Source of the DNA: Nanobdellota archaeon
GTDB lineage: Archaea; Nanobdellota; Nanobdellia; SCGC-AAA011-G17; JACPIM01
DNA length: 48,672 nucleotides
NCBI GenBank assembly: GCA_038045665.1
Contig: JBBSXW010000068.1
Span: 3,251-51,922 of the forward strand
Direction: 5' to 3'
A model generated the notes under the pieces. It worked only from the letters and a program-made list of their open reading frames with translations, was not told where the DNA came from and ran no database searches. Position numbers and translations under genes: made by a program. This document shows positions 1,405 through 47,439 of the stretch, one piece after another. Positions within the stretch are counted from its first letter, which is position 1. Each line of letters starts with the position of its first letter.

Positions 1405-3311
1405 AACCAACTTCTCACCTTATTCCAAAATCTAGCAAAAAAAGGCACATCCTCAACAATTAAAGGATAAACTCTTTCAATAAAATACCCCTCCTCACCT
1501 TCATCTTTATATTTAATCTTAATTTTCAAGCCGGAAACTAATCGTTTAGAATTAACACTAAATTGTACAGGTTTTTTTCCTTCTAATTCTATAAATTCGA
1601 TAATCCCTATATTCTCGATATCCAAAACAACATCCTTAGCTTTAAAATCAGAATTCACATCAAAAGTAACTTCTGTTTCAACGTCATATCCAACATTTTC
1701 AGGAAAAATATCAGTGATATATATTTCAGGCACTTTAATAACATCAAGTTCCAAAGTTTCTTTCTTAACGAAATTCTCATTCTCAACAACAAAAATAAAG
1801 CTATCTCGAGCAAATAATTCGTATTCAAAACTCTTCCTTTCGCCAATTCCAAAACTCTCCAAAGTACAATCATTATCTAAACATACATTAACATTTGCGA
1901 TAAAACTAGTTCCTCTATTAAAAACCTCGCAATTAATCTTTACTCTCTCATCCGACCTATATCCCCTTTCTTCGTAGCTACAATCAACATCAACATCAAC
2001 AAAAGGCTCTTTCTCATTTCGTTTACTCAAACTATCAGTAATATCTAAAACCTCTTCTTCAGAAAAAAAATCTCCTGTTTTAGCATAGAAAATCTTTCCT
2101 CTTGCCACAGAATTAAAAGAATCTTTAACTTCTAATTCAGAGGTATAAACAAATTTTTCATCCAAATCGTCAGGAACTTTAGAAATCCAAAAAACACTTC
2201 TAACCTCATTAGGAGCTAACAAGACAGCGAGACTATTATCCTCAACATTGGGCCCCCTACTTAAAAAAAGAGTCGTAGCAACATAAAAATCCTGTTTATT
2301 CTCCACAATTACCTCAATTGGGAAATAGCTCCCAAAACGTAGTTTATCTTTTAAAGGTTTGATATCTAATCTTGCTAAATTAGGAAACTTTTCACCAGTA
2401 TTCTCTACCCGAGTCACTAAATCCAGATCTCCAGCTTGAACATCTACATTAACGCTTTTCCATGAGTATTCAACACTGCTCTCGCCAGAATCAACAGTGT
2501 CGCTCAGTTTAAGATGGCTAGGGTCAACCCATCCATGCTGCCCAAATGTAACATCCCAAGGTAGCCATCCTTTTCCGGGAAAATAAACTTCAGCCCATCC
2601 ATGATTCCCCCAGCCAATGCCTTCTCCTCCATAAACAGTACCTGTAACAAACCTGGCAGGAATACCAATCATCCTTAGCATAGAAATAAACAAATTAGTT
2701 AGCTCGTCGCAAACCCCCTGTCTATTTTGCAAAACCCAGCTGGATTTTTGCACAGCCTTGGCAGTAATAGTATTCAAGTCGTATTCGACATTGTTTTGTA
2801 TCCAGTCAGCAATCTTAAACACAACCATATAATAATCATCTTCTCCTCTTACTATCTCGTTTGCTTGTCTCTTTATTTCATTATCAAAATCAATAAAATT
2901 TCCTTCTCCTAAATATTCATCAAATTCAGCATCAATCTCAGCCGGAAACCTTATTTTTGATTTTATTTTAATAAGATCATTTCTAACACGAACCTTAGAA
3001 GATATGCCATACTCATACTTAGGATACAAACCTTTCCATAAATACTCATAATTTCCATTCACTGTGATTTTTGCTTCAGGATTAGCTATAGTCTCTAAAC
3101 CTATAATCTGCTGCCTAGAATCCTCCGTAGGAAATAATTTTAAAACCACCCTTAACGAATCCAATCTCCCGCCATTTGAAGTCACAAATAGCTCAGAACC
3201 TATCTTAAAATCTAAGGTTATATCCTGATAGTCATCATAAGTTTGGGAAATAGCCCGTGGCACTAAAAGCAAGGCTAATATAAGTATCACCACTTTTTTC
3301 ATAATAAACAT
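1401..3311 (-). CDS. Secreted or anchored transglutaminase-like protein
   Basis: N-terminal signal/anchor MFIMKKVVILILALLLVPRAISQ. Transglutaminase-core Cys-His-Asp pattern (QGVCDELTNLF ... NHGWAEVYF ... WLPWDVT). Confidence 0.7.
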   Translation of the reverse strand: MFIMKKVVILILALLLVPRAISQTYDDYQDITLDFKIGSELFVTSNGGRLDSLRVVLKLFPTEDSRQQIIGLETIANPEAKITVNGNYEYLWKGLYPKYEYGISSKVRVRNDLIKIKSKIRFPAEIDAEFDEYLGEGNFIDFDNEIKRQANEIVRGEDDYYMVVFKIADWIQNNVEYDLNTITAKAVQKSSWVLQNRQGVCDELTNLFISMLRMIGIPARFVTGTVYGGEGIGWGNHGWAEVYFPGKGWLPWDVTFGQHGWVDPSHLKLSDTVDSGESSVEYSWKSVNVDVQAGDLDLVTRVENTGEKFPNLARLDIKPLKDKLRFGSYFPIEVIVENKQDFYVATTLFLSRGPNVEDNSLAVLLAPNEVRSVFWISKVPDDLDEKFVYTSELEVKDSFNSVARGKIFYAKTGDFFSEEEVLDITDSLSKRNEKEPFVDVDVDCSYEERGYRSDERVKINCEVFNRGTSFIANVNVCLDNDCTLESFGIGERKSFEYELFARDSFIFVVENENFVKKETLELDVIKVPEIYITDIFPENVGYDVETEVTFDVNSDFKAKDVVLDIENIGIIEFIELEGKKPVQFSVNSKRLVSGLKIKIKYKDEGEEGYFIERVYPLIVEDVPFFARFWNKVRSWF

Positions 3312-3495: not shown

Positions 3496-3948
3496 ATTAA
3501 ATGCCCCTACTGCTATCATGAAGAAACCAAAGTCTTGGATAAGAGAGACCCAGAAGAATCACTTACGACAAGAAGAAGGCGCGAATGCCTAAAATGCAAT
3601 AAAAGATTCACAACCTATGAAAGAATAGAAACAGATCTTATTGTTATCAAAAAAGAAAATTCAAGGGAAAAATTTTCGAGAGAAAAGCTGAAAGCAGGCA
3701 TTCTAAAAGCAATAGAAAAAAGACCTGTTTCCTTAGAGCAATTGAATAAGCTACTCGACAATATAGAAGCAAATTTAAGAAACAGAAGCTCATCTGAAAT
3801 AAGTTCTCAAGTCATAGGTGAATTAGTCATGCGAAAATTAAAATCCCTAGATCAAGTAGCTTATATAAGATTCGCATCCGTCTATAGAGAATTTCAAGAT
3901 CCATCTTCATTTATAGAAGAAATAAAAATATTAAGCAAAAAGGGGTGA
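3496..3948 (+). CDS. nrdR: Transcriptional repressor NrdR (Zn-ribbon + ATP-cone), probable ATT start
   Basis: Zn-ribbon CPYC...CLKC and ATP-cone (IVIKKENSREKFSREKL...VAYIRFASVY). The listed TTG start at 3535 removes the first CxxC. There is no ATG/GTG/TTG in frame after the TAA at 3475. ATT at 3496 gives the canonical MKCPYC N-terminus and lies 7 nt after GAGGTG (3483-3488). Confidence 0.8.
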   Translation: MKCPYCYHEETKVLDKRDPEESLTTRRRRECLKCNKRFTTYERIETDLIVIKKENSREKFSREKLKAGILKAIEKRPVSLEQLNKLLDNIEANLRNRSSSEISSQVIGELVMRKLKSLDQVAYIRFASVYREFQDPSSFIEEIKILSKKG

Positions 3949-3952
3949 TTAA

Positions 3953-6900
3953 ATGTCAATAAAAACTATAACAAAACAAGGGCTCAAAATCGAAAGGAAA
4001 TTCACAAGACAAGGAATTAATCCTTTAGAAGAAGTAGAATATGAAACTAAATCATCAAAAATAACAGAGCCAGATGGAACTATCATATTTCAAATGGATA
4101 ATATTGAAGCTCCCAAATCATGGTCGCAATTAGCTATAGACATAGCAGCATCAAAATATTTCAAAAGAGCGCAAGTCCCGACTCCGGAAGGAAGAGAAAC
4201 AAGCGTCAAGCAAATGGTCTCGCGGGTTTCATCTACAATAAGACAATTTGGAGAAGAAAATAATTATTTTGAAACAAAAGAAGATGCACAAGCTTTTGAA
4301 GATGAATTAAACTACATGTTAATAAACCAAATGGGCGCATTTAACTCCCCAGTATGGTTTAACGTTGGACTCTTCCATAAGTATGGCATTATAGGAAACA
4401 AACCAGGCACATATTTTTATAATTTAAAAACAGATCAAGTAGAAGAATGCGAAGATTCATATTCTCATCCTCAAGCATCAGCATGCTTCATCCAAAAAAT
4501 AGAAGATTCACTAGACTCAATTTACGAATTAATAACTAATGAGTCTAAGATTTTTAAATTTGGTTCCGGTACTGGGACGAATTTCTCATCATTGAGAGGA
4601 GTAGAAGAACCATTGTCAGGAGGTGGAAAATCCTCGGGCTTAATGTCTTATTTAAGAATCCTCGATAGAAGCGCAGCTGCAGTAAAATCAGGCGGCATCA
4701 CAAGAAGGGCCGCAAAGATGTGCGTCCTGGATATGGATCATCCTGAAATAGAAGACTACATAATGTGGAAAGTAAAAGAAGAAGATAAAGTGCAAGCATT
4801 AATAGCCGCAGGCTATACCTCAGATTTCAATGGAGAAGCTTATCAAACAGTTTCAGGGCAAAACTCAAACAATTCAGTCATGATTCCTGACAAATTCATG
4901 AAGACCGTTATAGAAGATAAAGATTGGCCGACAATAGAAAGAACAACTAAAAAAATAAGGAAAACTTACAAAGCACGCGATTTAATGAAAATGATTTCAG
5001 AAGCAGCCTGGCGTTGCGCAGATCCTGGAGTTATGTTCTACGATACAATGAACAAATGGAATGTATGCGCAGACACAGAACATATACACTCAACTAATCC
5101 ATGCGCCGAATTTGTATTTCTAGACGGAACTGCATGCAATTTAGCATCAATTAATCTAATGAAACTAATGAATGAAGACGTATTCGATATTGAATCATTC
5201 AGACATGCATGTAAAATATTCATAATAGCCCAAGAGATTATTGTTGATTTAGCATCATATCCCATACAAATAATCGCAAAAAGAAGTCATGATTTGAGAC
5301 CTCTAGGTTTAGGACATGCAAATCTTGGTACACTGTTAATGACGCAAAGCATTCCATATGATTCTGAAAAAGGCAGAGCAATTGCAACAGCCATAACAGC
5401 CATACTAACAGGGCACGCCTATAAAATTTCAGCAGAAATTGCAGCCATAAGGGGTTCTTTCCCAGACTATGAAAAAAACAAGGGCTCAATGATGAGAGTA
5501 ATGAGTATGCACAGAGAAGCTGCGTATAAAATTGATGTTCGTCATTGTCCATCTTACCTTTTGGATGCGGCAAGAGAAGATTGGGATCAAGTTGTAGAAC
5601 TAGGAGAAAAATACGGTTTTAGAAATGCTCAAGCAACAGTACTCGCGCCTACTGGATGCCTAGTAGGTAATTCATTAGTACCAACAGAAAATGGATTAGT
5701 GAGACTAAAAAATCTTGGAAATCCTCGAGGAGATCAATGGCAAGATACATCATTTGAAGTAATGACAGACGAAGGGCCAAGAAAGGCAACTAAATTTTAT
5801 ATTAATGGTATGGCAAAAACAAGAACAATTAAAACATCATCAGGTTATGAAATACAAGGAACCGAACAACACAAAATAAAAGTTCTAAATCCAGAAAACA
5901 AAGAATTTGTGTGGAAAAAAGTTTCTGATGTAAAAGAGGGGGATATAGTGCCACTAGCAATGAATACTTTATTCGGAAAAACACAAGAAGTTCTCTTACC
6001 ACCAATACCAGAATTACATTGGAATTGTGATTTTGAATTAAAGACGCCAAAAAATATGTCAGAGTCTTTAGCAGAAATTATTGGTTATTTCATGGGAGAT
6101 GGTAGTCTCCATAGCAAAGGATTGAGATTTTGTGTATCTAATGAAGATATAGATGTTGTAGAACATTTAGGAAAAATCATAAAAAATCTATTTAATAAAG
6201 ATATCAAAGTTTCTCAATGCAAGGGATACAAAGAAGTGGCAATTAACTCTGTACCATTAACAATGTGGTGGGATGCCTGCGGATTCTCTAAAATAAAACC
6301 ATCAGAAGAACATTATGGAAAGGGCTATAAGCCTTACATCCCAGAGGCTATACTCCATACTAATAGCAAAGATATTTACTCTGCTTTCTTAAGGGGGTTA
6401 TTTGAAGCAGATGGCACAATAACAGTAGGGAATCCTTCCTTCTCGACTGTAAACAAAGAATTCTCAGAAGAAATTAAAACACTACTTCTTTGTCTTGGCT
6501 ACCCAACAACAACAAAAATAGATGTTTCCGGATGGGGAAAATCTGCTTTATACGTATTAAGATTGAAAAATATTTCATATAATGAATACTTCATGAAAAA
6601 CATTAGTTTTATCGGAAAAAGAAAAATAAACAAAGTCAATTTAAACAGAAGCTTACAAACAGGCAACAGAGACTATGTATATTTATCAGAAGAAACAGTA
6701 GATGAAGTCGCACCAGTTGGAAATTCACATAGGGACGTTGTATTGGTTTCTCTCAAAAGACCCGGGGCTATCCCAAGAGAAAGAATAATAAGCATATATC
6801 AAGACACCCAAAATCCAAAATTACTTAGAGCTCTGCAGTTTTTCTATGACACTATTGAAAGCAACGATGATGGCGGAATACAGCCTACATATGACTTGTC

Positions 6901-8053
6901 TGTTCCAGAAAATGTAACGTACGTGGCTAATGGTTTTGTGAGCCATAATACTATAGCTTTGCTCATGGGGTGCGATACAACAGGCATAGAACCAGAATTT
7001 TCACTAATAAAGTGGAAAAAGCTTGCAGGTGGCGGCCATTTCAAAATTATAAATGCTTCCATAGAAAAAGCCCTTCAGAAGCTTAATTACGACGAAATTG
7101 AAATAAAAGAAATCATCGATTACATATCAGAAAATGGGAACATAGAACACGCACCATATATTAAAAAAGAACATATTCCAATTTTTGATTGCGCAAATAA
7201 AAATCCAGGAGGCTCAAGATTCATAGAGCCAATGGGCCATGTGAAAATGATGGCTACCGTCCAACCTTTTGTAAGTGGTGCAATTAGCAAAACAGTTAAT
7301 TTACCAAACGAAGCAACTGTAAAAGATATCCAAGACATATATTTCCAAGCCTGGCGCCTAGGATTAAAAGACATTGCTCTATACAGAGATGGCTGTAAGC
7401 TTTCCCAACCGTTAAATACAAAATTAGAGCAAGAAAAAAGTTCATCAGTAATGGAACGCGGAACGCAGAAAAAACTTCCATACAAACGAAAAGGAATCAC
7501 AATTGCAACAAAAATAAGTGGAAATAAAATTTTCTTAAGAACCGGAGAATACATAGATGGAAAAATAGGAGAAATCTTCATAGACATGCATAAAGCAGGC
7601 TCATCTTACAAAAGCCTATTAAACTGCTTTGCAATTGCAGTATCAACAGGCCTACAATATGGTGTTCCTCTAGAAAAATACGTTGAAATGTTCACATTTA
7701 CAAGATTTGAGCCAAGTGGATTAACCGATCATCCAAATATTAAATCAGCCACATCGGTAATAGATTTCATATTCAGAGTCTTAGGAATGGAATACCTTGA
7801 TAGAACCGATTTCGTCCATGTTCCTCCTAAACTTCATCCAGAAATTCAAGATCTGCCAAAAAAATCCAAAGAAGAAAGTAAAAAATCAGAAACTCAAGCA
7901 AAACTTCTTAATGACACGCTTGCATCAAAAGAAAAACATCTCAGTAACATGCTCGGCGATGCTCCATTATGCGACCAATGCGGCCACACAACAATTAGAA
8001 ACGGCTCATGCTACAAATGCCTAAACTGTGGCAACTCTATGGGTTGTTCTTAA
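3953..8053 (+). CDS. nrdJ: Class II (B12-dependent) ribonucleotide reductase, intein-containing
   Basis: N-terminal block [14 protein letters not shown], active-site NPCAEF (Asn-x-Cys-x-Glu), and a C-terminal CxxC...CxxC tail (CDQCGH...[11 protein letters not shown]). No small-subunit gene is nearby. An insertion with intein hallmarks interrupts it. Confidence 0.85.
   Translation: [1366 protein letters not shown]
5657..6949 (+). mobile_element. Intein with LAGLIDADG homing-endonuclease domain inside nrdJ (431 aa)
   Basis: The insertion starts with Cys ([11 protein letters not shown]) and ends VSHN|T. Two LAGLIDADG blocks are present ([23 protein letters not shown]). Deleting 5657-6949 restores a contiguous conserved RNR block, [23 protein letters not shown]. 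Confidence 0.85.
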
Positions 8054-26351: not shown

Positions 26352-26400
26352 GATGACTGTAATAATCCATAGGTATAGTAATCTTAAAAATAATAATAAA

Positions 26401-27255
26401 ATGTCAAAAAATGTTATTATAACGAATGCTGAAAAACTAGAAAAAACAAAAAAAACTATTTCTACAGCAGGTGCCAAAAAATTTCATGTTTTATCAGATT
26501 TTGACAGAACGCTTACAAAGGCATTTGTCAATAGAAAAGAAGTTCCTTCTCAAATTTCTGTTTTAAGAGAGAGGGGTTACTTATCTAATGATTATGCAAC
26601 AAAAGCGTACGCTCTATATAACAAGTATCATCCCATCGAAGTTGATCCGAAAATTCCAATAAAAGAAAAAAAAGCTCAGATGCAAGCGTGGTGGGAAGCT
26701 CACTTTAAACTATTAATTGAATCTGGATTAAACAGAAGGGACCTAGAAAGAGTAGTTGAATCAAAGAAGATAAAATTCAGAAAGGGCGCATTAGAATTAA
26801 TTGATTTTTTATATAAACATAATATTCCTTTGGTTATTCTTTCCTCAAGCGGTTTAGGCACAGATGCAATCAGAATGAGCTTAGATAAGAAAAGAAGGCT
26901 ATATGACAATGTCTACATCGTTTCTAATTCGTTTGAATGGGATGAAAAAGGCAATGCAATTGGGGTTAAAAAGCCCATAATTCATGGAATGAACAAAGAT
27001 GAAACCGTAATTCAGACTTTTCCTTTTTTTAATGTAATTCGCCATAGGACCAATGTTCTATTATTGGGAGATAGCTTAAGCGACGTTGATATGGTTAAAG
27101 GTTTTGATTATGAAAATTTAATCAGAGTTGGATTTTTAAATAAAGACATCGAAAATAGTTTGGAGGCATATAAAAGAAATTTTGATATCATTATATTGAA
27201 TGATTCTCCCATGGATTATGTTAACGACCTGATTGCGGGTATGTTCGGGCAATAG
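26401..27255 (+). CDS. HAD-superfamily pyrimidine 5'-nucleotidase, cN-III/UMPH-1-like
   Basis: DxDxT motif (VLSDFDRTLT), YHPIEVDPKIPIKEKKAQMQAWWEAH, LSSSGLG, VSNSFEWDEKGN..IHGMNKDE and LLLGDSLSDVDM all match my memory of the cytosolic 5'-nucleotidase III family. The start could be 26353 or 26401. Confidence 0.65.
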   Translation: MSKNVIITNAEKLEKTKKTISTAGAKKFHVLSDFDRTLTKAFVNRKEVPSQISVLRERGYLSNDYATKAYALYNKYHPIEVDPKIPIKEKKAQMQAWWEAHFKLLIESGLNRRDLERVVESKKIKFRKGALELIDFLYKHNIPLVILSSSGLGTDAIRMSLDKKRRLYDNVYIVSNSFEWDEKGNAIGVKKPIIHGMNKDETVIQTFPFFNVIRHRTNVLLLGDSLSDVDMVKGFDYENLIRVGFLNKDIENSLEAYKRNFDIIILNDSPMDYVNDLIAGMFGQ

Positions 27256-28378: not shown

Positions 28379-28409
28379 ATTAAACCCGAATTATGCTTGT
28401 CACTAACTA

Positions 28410-28424
28410 ACTTACTAAGTAAGT
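28410..28424. promoter_or_regulatory. Perfect 15-nt palindrome ACTTACT-A-AGTAAGT (candidate operator) within a CTAA-rich tract
   Basis: 7-nt arms around a single central nucleotide, so it cannot form an RNA hairpin loop. It lies about 15 nt upstream of a TATA-like GATTTAAATAG and about 55 nt upstream of the RHH-like ORF. Confidence 0.4.
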
Positions 28425-28478
28425 AACTAATTAAGAAAGATTTAAATAGAGCAAATTAATGCATTTTTCTAAAAGAGG

Positions 28479-28604
28479 ATGAAAAAATATCTGCTTTTAA
28501 TAGAGGACGAGAAGCTTTGGGCTAGATTCAAGTCTCTAATTAAAAACGACATCAACACAGAGATCATAAAATTAATTAAAAAAAAGGTAGAAGAAAAAAA
28601 ATGA
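28479..28604 (+). CDS. 41-aa ribbon-helix-helix-like ORF (below ORF-track cutoff)
   Basis: MKKYLLLIEDEKLWARFKSLIKNDINTEIIKLIKKKVEEKK*. The pattern is beta-strand then two helices, as in CopG/Arc. Its stop overlaps the next ATG (ATGA). Confidence 0.4.
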   Translation: MKKYLLLIEDEKLWARFKSLIKNDINTEIIKLIKKKVEEKK

Positions 28605-30505
28605 AAAGAGGTCAAACTACAATATTCATAATCCTAGGAATTTTAGTAGTATTGGCAGCAATAGGATTTATTTACTTAAGAGACAGATTAACTTTTGGAG
28701 GTTTACGTCCAACAGAAATTCAAGTGCCGTTACAAGCTGAAAGCGTTAAACAATATATTGGCACATGCATAGAAAATATTCTTAATAAAGCAATAACCAT
28801 TTTGGGCTCACAGGGAGGCTACATAGAATTCCCATCAGATCCTATTAACACAGGTACATTCTCAAATACATTAACTCTTTTTGGAAATAATAAAGTTACA
28901 ATCTGGAATTATATAGCAGATAATAACGTCTTATTTAATCAAAAACCAATTATAAACTCAATGGAGAGTGAAATCTCAAATTACATAACAAATAATCTAA
29001 GGCCTTGTTTAGGAGAATTCAACACATTCGATGGCTTCACTATAAAAAGCGGTAGAATTTTAACACAAACGGATATCCAAAATAAAAGAGTCGTAACAAA
29101 GGTAACATTTCCTACTTTAATCGAAAAAGAAGATTTTAAGTTTCAGTTCAGTGACTTTTACATAGCAAAAGAATCAAGTCTTAGGGAATTATTTGAGATA
29201 GCAGAAAAATTATTTGAAGAGGAAGAAAAATCACATTTCCTAGAAACAAGGACCATAGGAATGATGAGCGTGTATAAAGAAATACCATTTGTAGGAGAAA
29301 CTAATGACTGCGTAGCCCCAATCTGGTTTAAAGACCAAGTAACAAAGGACTTCAAAAATATTTTAAAAACAAATATTCAAGCCCTAAAAGTCAAAGGAAC
29401 AAATTATACCTTAACAAGAGAACAAGATAAGTACCTAGAAATAGATATTGGCACAGAAAATAAAGATGCTCTGTCTTATTTCATGTTCTCAGAAATCTGG
29501 CCATTTGAATTACAAGTAATCCCAGAAGACAATGGTATCCTCAGAGGCTACAGCGTTACAGAAGCCTTGGGAGAAGCAAGAGGCATAGCAGAAAGCTTCA
29601 TCTGTCTAAGTACGTATGAATTTATTTACACAGTAAAATACCCGGTTTTAGTAATCCTAAACAAAGAAGATTTAACCTTCCAATTCTCACTAATGTCTTT
29701 CATCGATAGAAACGAGCCTAGAATAAATACAGAAGAATACTTGAGCTTTGAGCAATACGATCAAAGATTCTGCAATGAGCAAATAAGTTTCGTAGTTGAC
29801 ACAGTAGATGAAAATTTCAAAAGCTTAGATAATGTAGAAATAAAATATAAATGCATCAATCACTTATGTGACCTAGGAACTACTGAAACAGGCACGTGGC
29901 AGGGCTTAGTTCCCTTATGCATTAACGGAGAGTTTATTGGAAATAAAGAAGATTATCACACTGGAAAATCATTATTAAGCACGAACATTCCAGGAAGCGC
30001 CCTTCTTATCCTAGAAAAACTAAAAGAAATAGAGTTAGAAGTTCTTATAGCCAGAGCAGGCAGCGGAGAATTAAGGCCGAGAGAATCTGCTCATATCTCG
30101 TTGCAGGAAGGATTTAAAGAGTTTAACACAAACATAATCTACCCAGAGCAAAAAACAGTAAAATTAATACCTGGATTCTATAGGGCAAAAATAAACCTAG
30201 TAAGCCCATTAACGCAAGAATTAAGCATTCCTGAAAAAAGATTTACCAGTTGCCACAGGGTGCCAAAACCTGGTATAGGCGCAATATTTGGCTTTTTAGA
30301 AGAAAAATGCGACGAAATAGTCATTCCTTCAACAACAATTGATCAAATTATTACAGGCACAGAAGAATTCACTTTTTCAATTTCAAAAGAAGACCTGAAT
30401 AAAAAGAAAATAAGGTTTTACGCTCCTTGGCATGGAACAATAAGCGACGTCACAGAATTAGCCAACTTAACAAAACAGCCAGCAAGGCAACCAGAGATAA
30501 TATGA
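28601..30505 (+). CDS. Large extracellular protein with class III (type IV pilin-like) signal peptide
   Basis: N-terminus MKRG|QTTIFIILGILVVLAAIGF: a basic residue then Gly, followed by a hydrophobic helix, as in archaeal prepilins. The remaining ~600 aa have no recognisable domain and scattered Cys pairs. Confidence 0.55.
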   Translation: MKRGQTTIFIILGILVVLAAIGFIYLRDRLTFGGLRPTEIQVPLQAESVKQYIGTCIENILNKAITILGSQGGYIEFPSDPINTGTFSNTLTLFGNNKVTIWNYIADNNVLFNQKPIINSMESEISNYITNNLRPCLGEFNTFDGFTIKSGRILTQTDIQNKRVVTKVTFPTLIEKEDFKFQFSDFYIAKESSLRELFEIAEKLFEEEEKSHFLETRTIGMMSVYKEIPFVGETNDCVAPIWFKDQVTKDFKNILKTNIQALKVKGTNYTLTREQDKYLEIDIGTENKDALSYFMFSEIWPFELQVIPEDNGILRGYSVTEALGEARGIAESFICLSTYEFIYTVKYPVLVILNKEDLTFQFSLMSFIDRNEPRINTEEYLSFEQYDQRFCNEQISFVVDTVDENFKSLDNVEIKYKCINHLCDLGTTETGTWQGLVPLCINGEFIGNKEDYHTGKSLLSTNIPGSALLILEKLKEIELEVLIARAGSGELRPRESAHISLQEGFKEFNTNIIYPEQKTVKLIPGFYRAKINLVSPLTQELSIPEKRFTSCHRVPKPGIGAIFGFLEEKCDEIVIPSTTIDQIITGTEEFTFSISKEDLNKKKIRFYAPWHGTISDVTELANLTKQPARQPEII

Positions 30506-33500
30506 AACATAAAGAAATAATCGCAATCGTATGTATGTTTTTAATAGTGAGCCTGCCAATTTCTTTAGCACAGCAAACACAGAATAAAAACAATGCCGAG
30601 GATAACAATCAGGATAACAAAGAAGCTTCAGCTACTGTAGGTGCTGGAGAAATTAATGTTGGCTACATTGGCCCGGAAACAAAAGAAGAATTCAAAGAAG
30701 ATACCTTTTATTCAGATATTACAATCAACGTAAACAGATACGAGCCAACTGTTTTAACAACAAACCTAGTTGAAGAGCAAGATACTCCGATTTACGCATT
30801 CCTTTCAGCGCTTCCCAGCATTGATCTAGGAGAAGTGCCAAGAATAAGCAGCGTAGATGTTGCAGTTATTGGCGGCGATACCCAATATGTTGCAAGAAAA
30901 CCACAATACTTCCCCCCTCCAATTTACACATATGAAGACATAGGCTACATAGCAACCTGGATAAAAAGAATTCCAAAAGAGCAAGATGTCCCAAGAAAAA
31001 TAGACCTAGATCTAAAAGCAAGAATAAGATTTGAAGGAGAAGTCACCGCTCCAGTTTTAGGAGGAGAGCAAAAAAAGATTTTCAGTTCGACAGCATCTAG
31101 AAGAATCTTCTCAGGTGACAGATTTATAGACCCAGAATTTTCAGTATTCGGTGGAAGAGGATACCTAAGGCCAAGTTTTATCGGAAAAGATTTCGCAGTT
31201 TTTGATGTTTACGGCCATGACGGAGTAAGAATAGGCCAAATGCGCGCAGCAATAGGGCAAGAAAGCGAATCTGTAAGTCTTGTCCCAGGAAGCAAATTCG
31301 TAGAAGATCAAGTTAGAGTAAGGGTTGAAAGAATAATAGATGAATCACAAACAAACGTAAACCTAGAAATAGAGGGAGTACAGCAAACCTACAACGTAGG
31401 CAACGAAATTGGGTTAAGCACATGGTTTGTAGAAGACATTTTTGTTCCAGATGATAAGGATACTAGCGCTTCTTTTGTTTACCTAGTAAAAAAAGAAGGC
31501 AATATTATTGAAAGAACAACAAGAACAGTAGAAAGAATAACAAGTGGTGCATCTACAGAAAACGAATTAATCTTAATACTTAAAGATGGAAAAAGCCTGA
31601 CTGAAGAAGAAACATTAAAATGGTATGAAGCAATTTATTCTTTAAGTGATGATGCAAGAACAAGAAGGAATTTACTAAACGATCCAGAAAAAATATTAAA
31701 TTCTGATTTAAAACAACAACTTGGAATAAACTCTCAACAAGCAGGAAGATTCCTCTCGAGAAAAATACCTGCTCTTGAAAATGAACTCTCTCCTCAAGAT
31801 TTTGTAAAAGAGTCTATTGGCGAGCTAAAAGCTGGCCTAGACAATAAAGAGGAAGAAGATGAATTTCCAATAATAATTAGCACAAACAAAGGTTTTGATT
31901 TGGGGGCTAACTTGAGAATACGGGGCTCAAACAGGATTTTCCATGAAGGCGATGAGTTAACAGACTCTCCGTTTAACTCTTGCACAGATCCAAGAACAAA
32001 TAGAGAAATATTCTGTACTATAGAAACAATAACAGACAACAGCGTCACTATATCATATCCTAGAATAAATAATCAAGATGGGTGCATCGGTACAGCAAGA
32101 GAAACATTATACATAAACACTTTATTCACCCAAGAACAACAAGCGCGAACAATTCCAAGAGAGCAAGGCTCGCAAGATATTCCTCCTAGCACAACCTTAA
32201 ACACAAGAGAAAGTATCCTAGGAAGTGAAAGGTGCGGAGCCGCAATAGAGCTTATCGATATAGAATCAAACAAGCAAGTGGAAGTAACAATCCTTTCAGG
32301 TTTAAAAAGAGGCTATACAGAGAGCCTAATCAAATTGCATGTTCCGATTGAAAAAAGAGCGATAAATATCTCGATAGACGAATTAGATAAAAAAATAGAA
32401 GAAACACAAAAACTAATTGAAGACCTAGATCATTTAATTGAAAAATTAGAAAAATTCGTCTCAACATGGAGCAAAGTCTGCCTAGGTGTAAGCGCATGGT
32501 TCACTTTAGAAGCATTCCTAGTAGGCCTACCTAAATACAAAAAAGGCACAAGTGATCGAGAAACGTTTTACAATAAAGAATTCCAATCAGCACCAAGTCA
32601 AGACGCAGAAACTTATTATACAATAGAACCAAAAGAAGGCCAACCACTTTCGGTTAATTCTCAGATATTCGGCATAGAAAACGGTATGTTTTACGGTCAA
32701 AAAGAAGGAGCAAGAATACCATTAGAAAATCAGCAGTATGTTTACAATACAAAAAGAGAACAACTCGTATGGGATCCAAAAACAGGAGAGCTAGTGCCTG
32801 CTCCAAAATTATCAGGCAGCGATGAAAGATCAATCAGGGTTTACAGTGGGCAAAGCGGCAAAGATAAAATAGTAATAGGCGTAGATGATAAAGAAAAAGC
32901 AATAAAACTAGTTCAAAGCTTGGGAAACAGGCAATTATCCCAGCAGCTTGAAGATGCATTGCAAGGTTACAACAATCAGGGATTTTATTTCGTTTATGAT
33001 CAAGGAGAATCCGTAACATTATTCCAAAAAAGAGGCAACATCATAGATTTCCAAGAAAGAGGAGCTTCTGGAGAATTAGATGATGTAGCAGTGCCATTCT
33101 TTGCATTCAAAACAGGAGGCTCATCACAAGAAAGATTTTTCTACGATAAATTTGAACAGCAGCTAGCCAGAGTAAGAGAAGCTCAAATAAGAGGCCAAAG
33201 AAGGGCATTTTTCGCAGGCTCGACATTTGACATAAATGACATGGGCAAACTAAACACAGCCAAATACAGATGCGAAGATGTTCTGGGGAGCGAAGCAAAA
33301 TGCAGCATTCTTTACAACGCATGTGATCCAGTTGTATGCCCAAGAAGCAGGTGCAACCTAGGCGGGCAATATCAGCAAACAGGTCCTAGTGGCGTAATCG
33401 GAAGCGGCTTAGTTGGAAGCTTAGTCTTATGCCTGCCAAACATACATCCTGATAATGGCGGTGTTCTTGTTCCTATCTGCCTCAGCGGAATACTTGCATC

Positions 33501-35613
33501 ATTAAAGGGAATAAGAAGTCATCTCCAAACATATAAGCAGTGTCTTGAAAAGCAAAAAGTAGACGGCGTAGTTGAAGGCACTTGCGATAAATTAAGAAGC
33601 ATCTTCCTTTGTCAATTAATCTGGAGAGAAGTTCTAGTCTTATTACAAGCCAAAGCAGGCTTAATCAATTTATTCAACAGCCAAGGCGCTGGCGGAGGAG
33701 AAGAATACTTCACACAAGGCATAGGTGGAAGCATAGAAGAGGCAAACGAAGTAGTTGGGTTCATGGTCAATGACTATGCAGACGATGTTTTAGCGGCATA
33801 CAGAGGAAAAGGCTTGGCTGAAATAGGTGTAGAAGTATGTAAAGCAAGCATCGCACAAAGAATCCCATTCTTAGACGCACTAGTCCAAGAATTTGCAACA
33901 CCAGCAAACCCACCTCAATTCACAGCATATTTCGAAGAAGCGCCATACGCCCCAACATTAGGAAAATCACTTTATTCAGTATATCTTCACATTTACGCAG
34001 GCACACCACAAAGAGAAGGCCAAACAATGAACTATTTTGTATATTTAAAATCCTTCGGCAGCAGTCCAAGACTAGTTGTAGATTCAGGAAATCTAGGATC
34101 TGAACAAAGCGCAGATAAGAACATTGACCTAATAGGTGATGCTGGCTATCAAGAGATCTGCACAGTAATTAATGGCCTAGAGCAATGCGGTTTTGGAAGA
34201 GTAGTCAGCAGCAGTTTCCTAATCTCCGGGTTAGATGATTACCTAGCATCAATAGATCTAGCAAGAGAAATAAAGACAGCAGCACAATGCAAGGCAGAGC
34301 CAACCGCACCTATAACTTACACATTACAAACCGGAGCACTTCCTTTTGCAAGAGTTAGAAGAGTTTGCTCATCAAGCAATCCCGGTCTTGGCTTAGGAGA
34401 AGAAAATTCATGGAAAAGAGTTGGCTCTTGTGGTCAAAACGAGCAAGGAATAAGCCTAGGATTGTGTTGGGAGTTCGGTGATCTAAGCAGATATCCAGAA
34501 CTAGAAAAACAAGCCCTTGACTTAAGCTGCAACGGAGGAGAAATTTGTGAATCTACCCAAGAATGTAAAGGCCATAGGTTAAGAGAAGACAGCAGAGGCA
34601 GAGTATGCTGTGTACCGAAAGGAAGCTGTGAAGATATCGAAGCTTTCACAACAGCAAGGGAATCTATAGGCTCATCTGGTCTAGACTCTAAAGAAATAAA
34701 CAAGCTAGTTAATGATTTCAAAAAAGGAGTAGTCACTACAACCACAAGATTAACACCAGAAGAATCTTTTGAACTCGGTCTTCATGCATGCTCAACAAAC
34801 GAAATAGCAAAATGCGAAGAATTCTTTTTCAACATACCAGCAAGCCACAAGCTATACGCTAAAGCAAACCTCGTTCTAGGAATAATCTATTTAGAGTTAA
34901 ATGAATTGGAAAAAGCCAAAAGCGCGCTTGAAAAAGCCCAGCGCAACAAAAAAGACCTTTCAACACAAGAGCAAAAAGACCTAGAAGAGAAACTAGCAGC
35001 AGTTAAAGTAAAACTAGAAGAGAAACAAAAAACAAAAGAAGAAAAAAGTAAGGTAGCAAGCTTAAAAGATACAGCAAACAAAATATTAAGAGAGGCCATA
35101 AGTCTCAAAAATTCATATAGTAGTTTTGCTTCTGTCAGGACAGAATTAGAGAAATCAATAAGCAACCTCACAACAATCACAAACACAATAGGCTCAACTA
35201 AAGAGCAAAAAGATGAAATAGTAATTCAAAACTTAAATGATGCATTAACAACAATAACGAACATCAACATAGAAGAAGATCAGGAATACAAAAAGATAAT
35301 TGATTCTATAGATAAAATCAAAGAGGACCTAAATCAAAATAAGATAAAAGGCGAGATACGCACAACAATAACAGCAGTAAAGGATAGGATTTCATCCTCA
35401 TTAAGGGACCTCACCACCCCAAGAAAGGAAATCATCAGCATCTTGGATTCAGTATATAATGGTTTACAAACTCAAACAAATGAGTTACTTATCCAAGAGT
35501 TAGACGGTATCCAAAATAAAATGCCTCAACTAAAAGAGCCTCTCGCATCACTAAAAGAAAAAATAGAAACCCTGAAAACAAGATACGAAGCAACAAATGA
35601 AAACCCTTCTTAA
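30502..35613 (+). CDS. Giant (~1703 aa) secreted/membrane-spanning Cys-rich protein with C-terminal TPR-like and coiled-coil region
   Basis: ATG 30502 overlaps the upstream stop (ATGA) and gives a Sec-type signal, MKHKEIIAIVCMFLIVSLPISLAQQ. Internal hydrophobic segments are VCLGVSAWFTLEAFLVGL and GVIGSGLVGSLVLCL...LVPICLSGILASL. A Cys-dense middle region is followed by a Lys/Glu heptad-like C-terminus. Confidence 0.6.
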   Translation: MKHKEIIAIVCMFLIVSLPISLAQQTQNKNNAEDNNQDNKEASATVGAGEINVGYIGPETKEEFKEDTFYSDITINVNRYEPTVLTTNLVEEQDTPIYAFLSALPSIDLGEVPRISSVDVAVIGGDTQYVARKPQYFPPPIYTYEDIGYIATWIKRIPKEQDVPRKIDLDLKARIRFEGEVTAPVLGGEQKKIFSSTASRRIFSGDRFIDPEFSVFGGRGYLRPSFIGKDFAVFDVYGHDGVRIGQMRAAIGQESESVSLVPGSKFVEDQVRVRVERIIDESQTNVNLEIEGVQQTYNVGNEIGLSTWFVEDIFVPDDKDTSASFVYLVKKEGNIIERTTRTVERITSGASTENELILILKDGKSLTEEETLKWYEAIYSLSDDARTRRNLLNDPEKILNSDLKQQLGINSQQAGRFLSRKIPALENELSPQDFVKESIGELKAGLDNKEEEDEFPIIISTNKGFDLGANLRIRGSNRIFHEGDELTDSPFNSCTDPRTNREIFCTIETITDNSVTISYPRINNQDGCIGTARETLYINTLFTQEQQARTIPREQGSQDIPPSTTLNTRESILGSERCGAAIELIDIESNKQVEVTILSGLKRGYTESLIKLHVPIEKRAINISIDELDKKIEETQKLIEDLDHLIEKLEKFVSTWSKVCLGVSAWFTLEAFLVGLPKYKKGTSDRETFYNKEFQSAPSQDAETYYTIEPKEGQPLSVNSQIFGIENGMFYGQKEGARIPLENQQYVYNTKREQLVWDPKTGELVPAPKLSGSDERSIRVYSGQSGKDKIVIGVDDKEKAIKLVQSLGNRQLSQQLEDALQGYNNQGFYFVYDQGESVTLFQKRGNIIDFQERGASGELDDVAVPFFAFKTGGSSQERFFYDKFEQQLARVREAQIRGQRRAFFAGSTFDINDMGKLNTAKYRCEDVLGSEAKCSILYNACDPVVCPRSRCNLGGQYQQTGPSGVIGSGLVGSLVLCLPNIHPDNGGVLVPICLSGILASLKGIRSHLQTYKQCLEKQKVDGVVEGTCDKLRSIFLCQLIWREVLVLLQAKAGLINLFNSQGAGGGEEYFTQGIGGSIEEANEVVGFMVNDYADDVLAAYRGKGLAEIGVEVCKASIAQRIPFLDALVQEFATPANPPQFTAYFEEAPYAPTLGKSLYSVYLHIYAGTPQREGQTMNYFVYLKSFGSSPRLVVDSGNLGSEQSADKNIDLIGDAGYQEICTVINGLEQCGFGRVVSSSFLISGLDDYLASIDLAREIKTAAQCKAEPTAPITYTLQTGALPFARVRRVCSSSNPGLGLGEENSWKRVGSCGQNEQGISLGLCWEFGDLSRYPELEKQALDLSCNGGEICESTQECKGHRLREDSRGRVCCVPKGSCEDIEAFTTARESIGSSGLDSKEINKLVNDFKKGVVTTTTRLTPEESFELGLHACSTNEIAKCEEFFFNIPASHKLYAKANLVLGIIYLELNELEKAKSALEKAQRNKKDLSTQEQKDLEEKLAAVKVKLEEKQKTKEEKSKVASLKDTANKILREAISLKNSYSSFASVRTELEKSISNLTTITNTIGSTKEQKDEIVIQNLNDALTTITNINIEEDQEYKKIIDSIDKIKEDLNQNKIKGEIRTTITAVKDRISSSLRDLTTPRKEIISILDSVYNGLQTQTNELLIQELDGIQNKMPQLKEPLASLKEKIETLKTRYEATNENPS

Positions 35614-36385
35614 AAATTTTAATAAAGCAACATATTTTAAGGCTCTTGGGTTAGAGCTATTATTTCTATTGATTTTTTTCCTTATTTCAAAATTTTTCAT
35701 TTCTAAAATCTATAGCCTGATAGTAATCATCCAATCTATGCAGCAAAATATCGGTCAATTCGAAAATTTCGATATAGACAGCGCAGAGCTGTCAGAAATA
35801 CTCGAATTTAGAGAAATCGTCTCTCAAGTAAGCTCATCCTTAAACCAGCTAATACTTACATTAATAATATTTGCAGTTCTTATCTATCTAACCTACACAA
35901 TCATAAAGTCTGCCCAATGGAATATTATCCAGAATAATAAATTAACAAATTTCAAAAAATATTTTTTAAAATTCTCTATGCTTTCAATTTTCTTGCATGT
36001 AATATTAGCTGTTTTAATATTTAATATTCTAAAATACAGCAGAACCTTTCTAATCTCGTATATATTTGAAGGAAATTTCACTTATGCTCCATTCGTTAGG
36101 CTCATAATAATCGGTCTTATTCTAATCTTCGTATTTTACTTATTCTTCATCCTCTACATAAAGATAAACAAACTTTCACTATCACAATCATTCAAAGAGG
36201 CTTTCAAATTTAAAAAATTCCACTTGTTTTTCATATTTATCTTAATTTCGATAATGAGCGCTTTAATAGTAAGATACGGCCTAATACTCAGTTCTTCTGT
36301 CATAAGCATCTCAATCCAAGGCATTCTCGTCGCTTTCTTAATAACATGGTATAAGATATTCCTAAATAACCAGCTAGAAGCATAG
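35597..36385 (+). CDS. Polytopic membrane protein (about 6 TM), last gene of the operon
   Basis: Its start overlaps the giant gene's end by 17 nt. It is hydrophobic throughout. Confidence 0.55.
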   Translation: MKTLLKNFNKATYFKALGLELLFLLIFFLISKFFISKIYSLIVIIQSMQQNIGQFENFDIDSAELSEILEFREIVSQVSSSLNQLILTLIIFAVLIYLTYTIIKSAQWNIIQNNKLTNFKKYFLKFSMLSIFLHVILAVLIFNILKYSRTFLISYIFEGNFTYAPFVRLIIIGLILIFVFYLFFILYIKINKLSLSQSFKEAFKFKKFHLFFIFILISIMSALIVRYGLILSSSVISISIQGILVAFLITWYKIFLNNQLEA

Positions 36386-36467: not shown

Positions 36468-38012
36468 TCACTGGAGCAGTCTCGGGAAATTAAGGAATCC
36501 TTCTTCATCACACGAAACTATTCGTGCAGTAGGTGGATTTTGTCCAGTGCATTGATAACAAACAGGATCTTCAATAGTACACACTAAATTCTCTGCATCA
36601 AAGGCAGTCTCAGGTCTGTCCCCAAACTTAAGATGCGGGGCCCAAGTAACCTCAATATTTGTTCTGCTTACTTTAATCTTTGATCCTGGAATAGCCGCAC
36701 TACAATAATTTGCAACCATCCTAGGCAACCCAAAAATTCCTAAAATCTGAGGTGTTCCCGCCCGACAAGAAACCAAAGTAGCATATCCTTCGTCGCAAAC
36801 AAGAGACCCAAAACTACCTCCACTATCGATAGCAGTCCCACGAGAATCTCCATGAGCCATAACTATTATTTTTTTGAATTTACCAGCATTATTAATTCTT
36901 GTTTCTGGATTATAAACTACATTATCCATCCCATCGAAATCTGGCACATAGACCCCAAAAGTACATGGACCATTCTCATTTTGTATTTGATTATATATAA
37001 AGATTTGATAGTTTAGCAATCCATCAAAAACCGGATCGCCAAATATCACCAAAACAGAATTACTGCAATCGCACTCTTCTGGCACTCCGACACGTGGATC
37101 TAGCCAACGAATAATATCTAAACCCTCAGCTTCTCCCCACGTATAAACCCACCTATACTCACATCGTCCTGGAATTGATCCACAACTCTGTGGAAAATTG
37201 CTCCGTATCTTATCACAGCACCACTCAGTAAAAGAACGTGCACCAGGCATTGCACCAGAACAATGAAGTTGTTCATCTCCGCATTCTAATTCTTCACTAT
37301 CATCTTCCGGACTTTCGCAATGTGGGTCTGGTCTATCGCTACTGAAGTCTATCGTTAAATCACCATCGTTATCAACACCATCGCTACATTCAGATTGATC
37401 ATCAACAATTGTACTAATACATTCAATAAGAACTTCAGTAAAAATAACTCCTACACAACCAGGATTAGGATTAGCAACCCACCTCCATTCTGTTATAGGC
37501 TCACAATCAGATCTTTCATCACAAATAGCTAGAGAGGCAACTTCATTACATGGGGCCTCGTCATTACTTATGCTTGGTCCACCAATATTAGGAGGCATAG
37601 CATTATCATTATCTCTTTCTACAGCAATACCTCTAACTGCCGTAGCGCCCCCATCACTGCAATAAACCTTCCTTTCTCCTGTAAATGGAAAAGTAACAGT
37701 TCCTTCTTCATTTTCTCTCGTTATTATACTGTAAACATTATCATCTTTTGTTGAATCTTCATAAATAGCATTAGGATAAAATTCAGCAGGAAAAGGATAC
37801 GAAGGAGTTGCCTCTTTTATACTAACAATTCCATTAGAATCCCTATAAACATAAGCATTACCTATAACATTATTATTTAAGTCAAATATCTCAACAACAC
37901 ATACATCTTCATCAACAACTTTTCCCGTTATATTATCAAAATTAAAAAAGAAGCTAAAACTCACAAGAAGAATTAAAACAATGAAATAAATATTAGCATA
38001 ACCTCTTTTCAT
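36468..38012 (-). CDS. Secreted Cys-rich protein with DNDGD metal-binding-like motif and candidate clan-CD (caspase/gingipain-like) His-Cys dyad
   Basis: N-terminus MKRGYANIYFIVLILLVSF. ECSDGVDNDGDLTIDF motif. Hydrophobic strand + HG (KKIIVMAHGDSRG), then about 30 aa later hydrophobic strand + SC (ATLVSCRAGT). About 35 Cys in total. Confidence 0.4.
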   Translation of the reverse strand: MKRGYANIYFIVLILLVSFSFFFNFDNITGKVVDEDVCVVEIFDLNNNVIGNAYVYRDSNGIVSIKEATPSYPFPAEFYPNAIYEDSTKDDNVYSIITRENEEGTVTFPFTGERKVYCSDGGATAVRGIAVERDNDNAMPPNIGGPSISNDEAPCNEVASLAICDERSDCEPITEWRWVANPNPGCVGVIFTEVLIECISTIVDDQSECSDGVDNDGDLTIDFSSDRPDPHCESPEDDSEELECGDEQLHCSGAMPGARSFTEWCCDKIRSNFPQSCGSIPGRCEYRWVYTWGEAEGLDIIRWLDPRVGVPEECDCSNSVLVIFGDPVFDGLLNYQIFIYNQIQNENGPCTFGVYVPDFDGMDNVVYNPETRINNAGKFKKIIVMAHGDSRGTAIDSGGSFGSLVCDEGYATLVSCRAGTPQILGIFGLPRMVANYCSAAIPGSKIKVSRTNIEVTWAPHLKFGDRPETAFDAENLVCTIEDPVCYQCTGQNPPTARIVSCDEEGFLNFPRLLQ

Positions 38013-46909: not shown

Positions 46910-47140
46910 TTAAGCACTAATCTCAAATTTGAATGGTAGTGAAAGTTTAATCTCGCCCAATTTCCTCATTCTAGCCTTAAAGCTGAATATGGCTATGCCC
47001 TTGATGTCTTTTGTTGCCTTATCTACTATTTCAAAAACTCCATTATCTAAATTATCAAAATACGAATTTGAAATATCTCCAGAGGTTATCTCTAGAAAAT
47101 CCCCGTCTTCATCATAATAAATATTCATTTTATTTTCCAT
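46910..47140 (-). CDS. DUF2283-like small protein (putative antitoxin partner)
   Basis: MNIYYDEDGDFLEI...GIAIFSF pattern typical of DUF2283. It overlaps the end of the upstream gene. Confidence 0.6.
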   Translation of the reverse strand: MENKMNIYYDEDGDFLEITSGDISNSYFDNLDNGVFEIVDKATKDIKGIAIFSFKARMRKLGEIKLSLPFKFEISA

Positions 47141-47439
47141 TTTAATCCAGCTACCTTATTAGTAAAAAACGATGTTATTATATAGCCTTCACCATTTAAA
47201 TATTTAACTGAGATCAACAAATATCTTTCTAACGGATTCCTATATTTAAAATCCTTATAAAAATAAACCACAGTTTCATCTTGTTCAAAATACCTTATGG
47301 TCATTGGATTTTTCAAAGTATCTTGAATACTCTCTATCTGATCATGCATATGGGGATGTTTTAGTATATGTCTCCGCGCCTTGTCGGATAAGGATATTCT
47401 CCTACCAGTTTTATCTGTTATCTCGAATACGATACCCAT
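47125..47439 (-). CDS. DUF4258/PBECR-like putative toxin
   Basis: 104 aa; ...SDKARRHILKHPHM... followed by beta-rich YLLISVKYLNGEGYIITSFF. Pairing with DUF2283 is a known two-gene module. Confidence 0.45.
   Translation of the reverse strand: MGIVFEITDKTGRRISLSDKARRHILKHPHMHDQIESIQDTLKNPMTIRYFEQDETVVYFYKDFKYRNPLERYLLISVKYLNGEGYIITSFFTNKVAGLKWKIK

Follow-up and report, generated by a model that had tools for sequence, protein, structure and literature searches.

The stretch of DNA analysed here, 48,672 nucleotides (nt) of contig JBBSXW010000068.1 from a Nanobdellota archaeon (hereafter the window), contains a module of four genes that encode, in order, a basic protein of 41 amino acids (aa), a 634-aa protein with a prepilin-type signal, a giant Cys-rich protein of 1703 aa, and a 262-aa protein with six predicted transmembrane segments. 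We see roughly even chances that the module is an autoregulated operon building a cell-surface complex, which would make contact with the envelope of a second cell and degrade it locally in many lineages. The evidence that bears on this reading includes the conserved order and coupling of the genes, the invariant Cys pattern of the giant protein, the exchangeable enzyme domains carried by its relatives, and the co-occurrence of the first gene with a repeated promoter element. The module and its promoter have the following features:

28404-28435, + strand: tetranucleotide array of eight units T-[A/T]-A-[C/G/T], putative operator site for the 41-aa protein
28441-28448, + strand: TATA box TTTAAATA, 31 nt ahead of the start codon of the first gene
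28479-28604, + strand: 41-aa open reading frame (ORF), first gene of the module
28601-30505, + strand: 634-aa ORF, second gene
30502-35613, + strand: giant ORF, third gene, 1703 aa counted from the ATG (the mechanical ORF list begins it at an upstream TTG, 30427)
35597-36385, + strand: 262-aa ORF, fourth gene

The initial annotation, a reading of the window made without database searches, described these four ORFs as chained by overlapping stop and start codons. Coordinates and overlaps were confirmed: along the chain the junctions are ATGA, ATGA and a 17-nt overlap. The gene that follows the module (36468-38012, - strand) is convergent, and the module is therefore a self-contained transcription unit.

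Conserved gene order and the Cys-rich scaffold family

The nearest relatives of both large proteins are found in metagenome-assembled genomes (MAGs) of Woesearchaeota, Nanoarchaeota and Pacearchaeota, where all of them are annotated as hypothetical. Gene order is the same in a Woesearchaeota MAG (locus L001; 40, 636, 1679 and 260 aa, with overlapping stop and start codons) and in a Nanoarchaeota MAG (L002; 41, 665, 2159 and 256 aa, with overlaps at two of the three junctions), and in another Nanoarchaeota locus (L004) the gene for a 614-aa protein is coupled to that for a giant protein of 2639 aa. ORFs were called in the related loci and searched with hidden Markov models built for the module families. 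A homolog of the 634-aa protein is encoded directly upstream of the giant gene in 56 of the 58 loci with room for it, and 47 of these gene pairs overlap; on its downstream side, the giant gene is immediately followed in 39 of 65 loci by an ORF of about 250 aa that has at least five strong hydrophobic segments, and 47 of the 65 have such an ORF within 5 kb. Synteny, on which the initial annotation had staked its proposal, is thus very strongly conserved and, because the arrangement recurs in dozens of independent genomes, it is far above chance.

In a collection that holds one genome per species, the profile of the Cys-rich core matches at least 545 stretches, the best 80 of which all come from Woese-, Nano- or Pacearchaeota MAGs, one bin excepted. 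This bin, labelled 'uncultured Methanosarcinaceae archaeon', carries a giant-family gene (L073, CAWKGG010000031.1) with no homolog of the 634-aa protein detected upstream; the contig is probably mis-binned DPANN DNA and, if real, would be an interesting case of transfer. The core profile also matches 1,098 clusters (50% identity) among 1.8 billion representative proteins, and for 919 of these the match reaches E<=1e-30, so the boundary of the family is sharp. A further homolog search with the core alignment gave three matches and nothing new. The module is apparently single-copy and near-universal in Woesearchaeota/Pacearchaeota-type archaea. In 82 loci, many of them truncated, its flanks repeatedly contain the genes for ribosomal proteins S8e (33 loci), S3Ae (22) and S15 (11) and for a DHH protein (11). 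Judged from this comparison of gene neighbourhoods, the module occupies a vertically inherited locus of the core genome and is not a mobile element.

The giant protein can be divided into five regions:

30502-30570, + strand: hydrophobic N-terminus, predicted Sec-type signal peptide MKHKEIIAIVCMFLIVSLPISLA, cut before QQ
30679-31521, + strand: N-terminal ectodomain, residues 60-340, with P82, G148, E160, P164 and Y237 invariant across the family
32197-32532, + strand: middle block, residues 566-677, with an IPIEKRAI motif, a 49-residue helix (625-673) and invariant C660
33142-34506, + strand: family-defining Cys-rich core, residues 881-1335 (455 aa), with 17 invariant Cys and the motif NACDPVxCPxSRC
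34507-35613, + strand: variable C-terminal region with an 8-Cys stretch (1336-1440), a weak TPR match, a helical tail of about 260 residues and the stop codon

The signal cleavage site was placed by the -3/-1 rule, and the N-terminus is strongly hydrophobic in 93% of the relatives. Of the 31 Cys in the protein, 17 fall within residues 881-1335, and each one of these is invariant. The window protein aligns end to end with the giant Cys-rich scaffold family, which includes fam00969-type members, and keeps every invariant Cys. The Sec-like signal and the Cys-dense middle had both been recognised from the window alone, and they hold across the family; the membrane-spanning topology proposed with them does not. 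Hydropathy of the internal segments is marginal in the window protein (Kyte-Doolittle 1.3-1.7), their medians across 63 relatives are 1.0-1.4, and a strong internal segment is lacking in 56 of 62 relatives. The hydrophobic end of the middle block (residues 659-677) is likewise not conserved as a transmembrane segment. A multi-pass topology was rejected, since the internal hydrophobic segments are not conserved as transmembrane, and the giant protein is most likely secreted or surface-exposed, not membrane-spanning. Its invariant Cys would fit an extracellular location, given putative disulfides. In the Nanoarchaeota genome of L004, a homolog of VKOR (vitamin K epoxide reductase) is encoded about 8 kb from the module and runs off the end of the locus; such an enzyme would suit extracytoplasmic disulfide formation in Cys-rich surface proteins.

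Two further features attributed to the protein proved weaker than first described. Its TPR-like stretch exists as a single 29-residue match (residues 1453-1481), which at 16.5-20 bits stays below the Pfam cutoff of 25.7. The Lys/Glu coiled-coil tail (residues 1441-1703) is indeed made up of Lys and Glu to 24%, has zero Cys and is poor in Pro and Gly, but its heptad periodicity is just modest.

Searches of Pfam, PHROG and NCBIfam returned no domain for either of the two large proteins, in agreement with the initial annotation, which had recognised none; the exceptions are the sub-threshold TPR match of the giant protein and weak matches of its helical tail to tape-measure and minor tail proteins in PHROG (E=0.015 and 0.081). 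A sequence-profile search of the PDB with the family profile of the giant protein gave no significant match. An AlphaFold2 model of residues 560-1440, built on a 43-sequence alignment, has a mean predicted local distance difference test (pLDDT) score of 71.9 and consists, in order, of the 49-residue helix, a beta-rich region, a helical bundle (924-1134), a beta-sandwich (1139-1236) and small C-terminal subdomains. With this model, no Foldseek match to the PDB or to the viral library BFVD fell below E=0.03 (best BFVD match, E=0.039), and the recurring matches were generic immunoglobulin (Ig)-like sandwiches alone. The Lipocone/Wnt superfamily was considered for its Cys-rich, helical character and set aside; its description (PMC12419801) contains no mention of DPANN, and such proteins do not feature in the archaeal passages retrieved.

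The regions on either side of the core carry recognisable enzymes in some relatives. After the core, Pfam domains among 65 family members include SLT (seven members), Amidase_3 (three), Peptidase_M15_4 (three) and GDSL lipases (two to three), with further matches to VanY, DPBB_1, 3D, NlpC/P60, a trypsin-like protease, SH3_3 and Ig-like domains. Before the core, the matches among 40 members are to SLT (six), Phage_lysozyme2 (three) and Peptidase_M23 (one). On this domain content, the giant family is a conserved scaffold with interchangeable, predicted wall-, lipid- and protein-degrading modules at either end. In seven loci (L022, L027, L037, L044, L062, L067 and L083), the giant protein stops soon after the core, and its gene overlaps by 1 to 11 nt with a following ORF (430-1270 aa, one hydrophobic segment); this arrangement could be a split of scaffold and cargo into two genes, or the product of assembly frameshifts.

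Some members of the family have been noticed before. Those bearing an SLT domain were proposed to bind or degrade bacterial walls (PMC8204110, 2021; Vigneron et al. 2022, PMC9723730) and were recognised in these two papers through the SLT domain alone. They belong to the same superfamily and lineages as the window protein. More generally, peptidoglycan hydrolases have been reported to be prominent in Nanoarchaeota (PMC12352652). The SLT-bearing proteins P0016 and P0017 share the N-terminal domain, the middle block and the Cys-rich core of the window protein, which aligns with its SLT-bearing relatives at 34% identity over 470 residues (E=1e-64). The window protein differs from them in that it carries no SLT domain (no match at E<=0.1) or other enzyme domain.

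The prepilin-type and six-helix proteins

The 634-aa protein starts with MKRG followed by QTTIFIILGILVV, which fits an archaeal class III (prepilin-type) signal followed by a hydrophobic helix. The two elements that define such a signal, a [KR][GA] motif and a hydrophobic helix of about 20 residues, are both present in the window protein (MKRG before QTTIFIILGILVVLAAIGFIYL), and [KR][GA]Q with a hydrophobic stretch is kept in about 52 of 66 homologs (about 80%), where Q5 is nearly invariant. The prepilin-like N-terminus first noticed in the window is thus a property of the family. The protein has 10 Cys. In its AlphaFold2 model (mean pLDDT 82.8), the N-terminal helix is followed by a second helix, by alpha/beta domains (44-370) and by beta-sandwich domains (394-610).

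In Foldseek searches of the PDB, it was the beta-sandwiches alone that found matches, namely SdrD, PitA, SpaA/SpaC and the Cna B-repeats, which are Gram-positive pilins or adhesins, and SlaB (8qox_B, E=9e-5, TM-score <=0.18). Over whole chains, the TM-scores are about 0.1-0.3. The N-terminal alpha/beta half of the model matched nothing in the PDB, and a profile search of the PDB with the family profile gave no significant match. As modelled, the beta-sandwiches belong to a fold class typical of surface stalks, and the matches are no evidence of homology.

These features could also mean that the module serves a type IV pilus-like filament as its tip or as an accessory; the 634-aa protein would then be a large minor pilin bearing the giant protein as an adhesin, with the pilus itself encoded elsewhere. 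The class III signal kept in about 80% of the homologs would be expected of such a pilin, as would the N-terminal helix with a second helix behind it, and the beta-sandwiches resemble those of pilus adhesins. However, neither the window nor the annotated flanks of L001, L002 and L004 encode a pilus ATPase, platform protein or prepilin peptidase, and archaeal class III signals also occur on surface proteins that are not part of pili, such as the sugar-binding proteins of Sulfolobus. With archaeal type IV pilin-like proteins the 634-aa protein shares the [KR]G motif before Q and the hydrophobic helix, yet at about 630 aa it is far larger than structural pilins and has no assembly genes nearby. 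We regard a pilus module as highly unlikely. A type IV secretion or conjugation system, with a VirB1-like SLT protein and a VirB6-like membrane protein, was rejected, as the window and the annotated flanks encode no ATPase or coupling protein.

An S-layer-like envelope is another alternative. The giant protein would then form the lattice or canopy and the 634-aa protein its membrane-anchored stalk, as do SlaA and SlaB in Sulfolobales, and the enzymes of the relatives would be secondary decorations. The near-universal, apparently single-copy occurrence of the module beside ribosomal protein genes fits this proposal, and so do the joint encoding of a large protein and a smaller, anchored one by a single operon, the match of the 634-aa model to the SlaB beta-sandwich, and the strong consensus TATA box of the promoter. 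S-layer proteins are typically Cys-poor, however, whereas the core of the giant protein has 17 invariant Cys. Against it also stand the exchangeable hydrolases, lipases and protease that the family carries at either end; a dedicated repressor-like gene would be unusual for a constitutive lattice protein, and the SlaB match is to a generic Ig-like fold with a TM-score no higher than 0.18. The likeness to SlaA/SlaB, a large exposed protein with a membrane-anchored beta-sandwich partner, is unaccompanied by sequence homology; the anchor is an N-terminal prepilin-type helix here and a C-terminal transmembrane helix there, and the module adds a Cys-rich giant, hydrolase cargo in relatives, a six-helix protein and a regulator. 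On balance, an S-layer role is unlikely.

The 262-aa protein has six strong hydrophobic segments, predicted to be transmembrane as had been described at the outset, and zero Cys. It gave no match in Pfam, PHROG or NCBIfam and has no invariant residue among 40 homologs, which makes an enzymatic role unlikely. Archaeosortase and rhomboid were considered as identities for it and are unlikely, given the lack of Cys and of any invariant residue in the 40 homologs. Its gene is the least conserved of the module, with 34% identity to its counterpart in L002 as compared with 80% for the 41-aa protein. Homology of the six-helix protein nevertheless extends to loci whose cargo is very different or missing, and a structural membrane partner is therefore favoured over an immunity protein specific to one cargo. 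It is a candidate for the membrane base or partner of the complex.

This comparison also bears on the possibility that the module encodes a secreted antibacterial effector of the polymorphic type (a bacteriolysin), with the N-terminal part and the core serving in delivery, the variable region as the toxin and the six-helix protein as immunity protein or exporter. Polymorphic toxin and surface effector systems likewise have a conserved scaffold with variable enzymatic regions and a small membrane-protein gene directly downstream, and here the downstream gene is the fastest-evolving of the module. A pair of moderately hydrophobic, Gly-rich segments in the giant protein (residues 963-1004) could be a latent membrane-insertion element, and archaeal peptidoglycan hydrolases are able to kill bacteria (PMC12352652). 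Nevertheless, the six-helix protein does not co-vary with the cargo tip, and an archaeon that lacks peptidoglycan has no need of protection from enzymes that degrade it. In Pfam searches of the window protein, 65 tails and 40 N-terminal parts, no known trafficking or pre-toxin domain (such as RHS/YD or T5SS-T7SS markers) was found; the window clade is without any enzyme; and neither tip cassettes nor orphan immunity genes were seen in the flanks of L001, L002 and L004. The module further departs from polymorphic toxin systems in carrying cargo at either end, in having no co-varying downstream protein and in residing at a vertically inherited core locus. We consider a bacteriolysin distinctly unlikely.

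The 41-aa protein and its promoter array

The first gene of the module encodes a basic protein of 41 aa (MKKYLLLIEDEKLW..DINTEI...). It is 68-85% identical in 12 genomes, whereas identity is only 25-60% for the large proteins of these genomes and about 35-88% for the cores of their giant proteins. An independent metagenome scan yielded at least 317 relatives; among the best 80 of these loci, a homolog of the 634-aa protein follows in 76 of the 77 with room for it, and a tetranucleotide array lies no more than 120 nt upstream in 67 of the 80.

This array, searched for with the pattern (T[AT]A[CGT])>=5, is present exactly once, directly upstream of the 41-aa gene, in all 12 carrier loci and in none of about 68 loci that lack the gene. 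It usually has 8 units (range 5-10), of which the last is TAAG in 32 of 33 arrays. Within the unit T-[A/T]-A-[C/G], positions 1 and 3 are fixed and positions 2 and 4 variable, and the reading is the same on both strands. The array is followed by a 5-nt spacer, mostly AAAnA, and then by a TATA box TTTAWAWA, at a fixed distance in 33 distinct loci. In the window, the TATA box stands 31 nt before the ATG, which suggests a near-leaderless transcript. The initial annotation had placed a perfect palindrome and a TATA-like box before the module. Both are there; the 15-nt palindrome ACTTACTAAGTAAGT (28410-28424) lies within the array and its exact form is specific to the window, arising from a 4-nt difference inside the larger conserved repeat.

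The assignment of the 41-aa protein to the ribbon-helix-helix (RHH) class fared less well. The predicted order of one strand and two helices, read from the sequence, is RHH-like, and a repeated, operator-like array at the promoter of its own gene is a trait of RHH-type regulators. No RHH profile in Pfam, NCBIfam or PHROG matches it, however, PDB profiles gave nothing below E=0.4, and hhalign of the family against CopG returned a probability of 1%, so that RHH membership is unproven. With the RHH repressors that act on tandem repeats (CopG/Arc/omega), the 41-aa protein shares its small size, its pattern of a strand and two helices, its place at the head of the operon and the promoter array; it differs in lacking an RHH profile match and in a repeat of only 4 bp, whose second and fourth positions are degenerate.

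Where the 41-aa protein is missing, genes for other small DNA-binding proteins are found in the slot upstream of the 634-aa gene, and the two genes mostly share a -4 nt overlap. In L009, this gene encodes a canonical 43-aa RHH protein (ParG, 24.0 bits, above the family cutoff) and, in nine loci (L013, L025, L029, L031, L032, L034, L054, L059 and L084), a winged-helix protein of 61-64 aa (MIPTEKEL...GGSKVV). These genes look like non-orthologous replacements of the operon regulator. Together, the comparative data make a strong case for the 41-aa protein as a dedicated DNA-binding autoregulator with the array as its operator, from which we infer both binding and repression. The array abuts the TATA box, and binding would therefore compete with the TATA-binding protein (TBP) and transcription factor B (TFB).

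Setting, proposed working and significance of the module

The window (about 34% GC) is chromosomal DNA of a DPANN archaeon of the Woesearchaeota/Nanoarchaeota type. The genes around the module are archaeal housekeeping genes, namely those for ProRS, a class II ribonucleotide reductase with an intein, thioredoxin, aIF2-alpha, L44e, GINS, TruD, FtsY, SRP54, RIO kinase, S15, a DHH/GAN-type protein, S3Ae, TyrRS, S8e, EF-1beta and RadA. No tRNA was found in the window, and no integrase- or capsid-like gene was seen among the window ORFs scanned, a scan that left some ORFs out.

This setting bears on the view that the module is the remnant of a virus or mobile element, for instance a tape-measure or tail-lysin module, domesticated or still mobile. 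The weak PHROG matches of the helical tail are of this kind, and the Phage_lysozyme2 and SLT domains of some relatives are typical of tail lysins. Yet the PHROG matches are confined to the low-complexity helical tail, the core has no BFVD match better than the E=0.039 given above, the module is flanked by housekeeping genes, and many species have it at the same position; the lack of a tRNA in the window and of integrase- or capsid-like genes among the scanned ORFs points the same way. A viral origin is close to refuted. Nor did any confident homology emerge to a named adhesin family or to viral modules of the tape-measure or structural kind, outcomes that would have counted against the new system initially proposed.

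Several other genes of the window deserve mention. The convergent ORF that adjoins the module (36468-38012, - strand) encodes 514 aa, starts with a KRG-type signal (MKRGYANIYFIVLILLV...), is very Cys-rich, contains acidic CxDGxDNDGD-like repeats and weakly matches the 'acidic double-disulfide repeat' of NCBIfam (E=0.009). It is probably another surface protein with a pilin-type signal, and is not conserved at this place in other loci. On the - strand at 1401-3311, a 636-aa protein with a hydrophobic N-terminus and a transglutaminase-like core domain is a candidate surface or secreted protein; it is close in size to the 634-aa protein yet unrelated to it. The class II (B12-dependent) ribonucleotide reductase (3953-8053, + strand) is split by an intein with a LAGLIDADG homing endonuclease, and an NrdR-like ATP-cone gene lies upstream of it (3535-3948). 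A pyrimidine 5'-nucleotidase of the UMPH-1 type (26353-27255, + strand; strong Pfam match, E=4e-66), a family that is mainly eukaryotic, would be compatible with nucleotide scavenging in DPANN archaea. A 104-aa ORF (47125-47439, - strand) matches the barnase/EndoU/colicin-E5-like nuclease domains PBECR2/PBECR3 and may be the toxin of a toxin-antitoxin or conflict system.

For the module itself, we favour an operon for a surface complex that acts on the envelope of another cell, and its working can be pictured as follows. The 41-aa protein would bind the T-W-A-S array, about eight units long and directly adjoining the TATA box, and would thereby gate the access of TBP and TFB. A single, near-leaderless transcript would give rise to the four proteins by translational coupling, the overlapping codons of which are conserved across loci. 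The giant protein would be exported via Sec and would stay outside as a disulfide-stabilised scaffold. The 634-aa protein would be cut between KRG and Q by a prepilin peptidase, so that its hydrophobic helix could sit in the membrane or in a short pilin-like stalk with the Ig-like domains pointing outward, and the six-helix protein would be the membrane base on which the complex docks. The three proteins are presumed to associate physically at the cell surface. The variable regions of the scaffold would be its lineage-specific business ends, directed at a host: peptidoglycan hydrolases, lipases and a protease in the relatives and, in the window lineage, a putative protein-binding TPR and a helical tail, which would serve in adhesion instead of cutting.

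Several observations weigh against this picture. No recognisable enzyme is present in either the window protein or its close relatives P0001-P0015, and the argument that the complex acts on a host envelope is therefore borrowed from distant members of the family. No structural homolog or known domain was matched for the core, the N-terminal half of the 634-aa protein or the six-helix protein, and the model of the giant core (residues 560-1440, pLDDT 71.9) is of moderate confidence. The prepilin peptidase that the 634-aa protein would need is found, like a pilus ATPase and platform protein, neither among the window ORFs nor in the annotated flanks of L001, L002 and L004. Finally, near-universal conservation in the core genome would suit a purely structural role in the envelope equally well. 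A surface or cell-contact function, as first suggested, is nonetheless the best available reading, in view of the hydrolases, lipases and protease of the relatives and of the beta-sandwich model, and we put it forward as an inference.

The proposal that the system is undescribed stands in part. The giant family is not wholly so, its SLT-bearing members having been noticed before. What appears to be new are the obligatory prepilin-type and six-helix partners, the core of about 1,100 clusters, the interchangeable cargo, and the regulator with its (T-W-A-S)n array; in the literature passages searched, there is no mention of the core, of the alternative range of cargo, of the 634-aa partner, or of the six-helix partner with regulator and array. 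A bolder interpretation is possible, though doubtful: that the module represents a contact machine of an undescribed class in its own right, confined to DPANN archaea of the Woesearchaeota/Pacearchaeota type and present in nearly all of them, with a disulfide-rich fold that has no known structural relative, prepilin-type and six-helix anchors, a new type of 41-aa repressor acting on a (T-W-A-S)8 array of conserved phase, and interchangeable heads that degrade walls, lipids or proteins and so open the host envelope for nutrients.

Few uncultured archaea are as abundant as the Woesearchaeota and Pacearchaeota, whose hosts and mode of attachment or feeding are, to our knowledge, not known. If the complex works as proposed here, a conserved, surface-exposed module would provide a molecular handle on these organisms, as an antigen or marker for cryo-electron tomography and proteomics, and its cargo would be testable biochemically. 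The pairing of the 41-aa protein with the T-W-A-S array could be a simple new archaeal repressor-operator system, and a Cys-rich domain family of about 1,100 clusters without an assigned structure is a further lead. The heads carried by a given genome could then also indicate what kind of envelope its host has: heads that cut peptidoglycan would point to bacterial hosts, and non-enzymatic heads, as in the window, may point to hosts without murein. In this way, the module could help to reveal which cells these tiny archaea live on.

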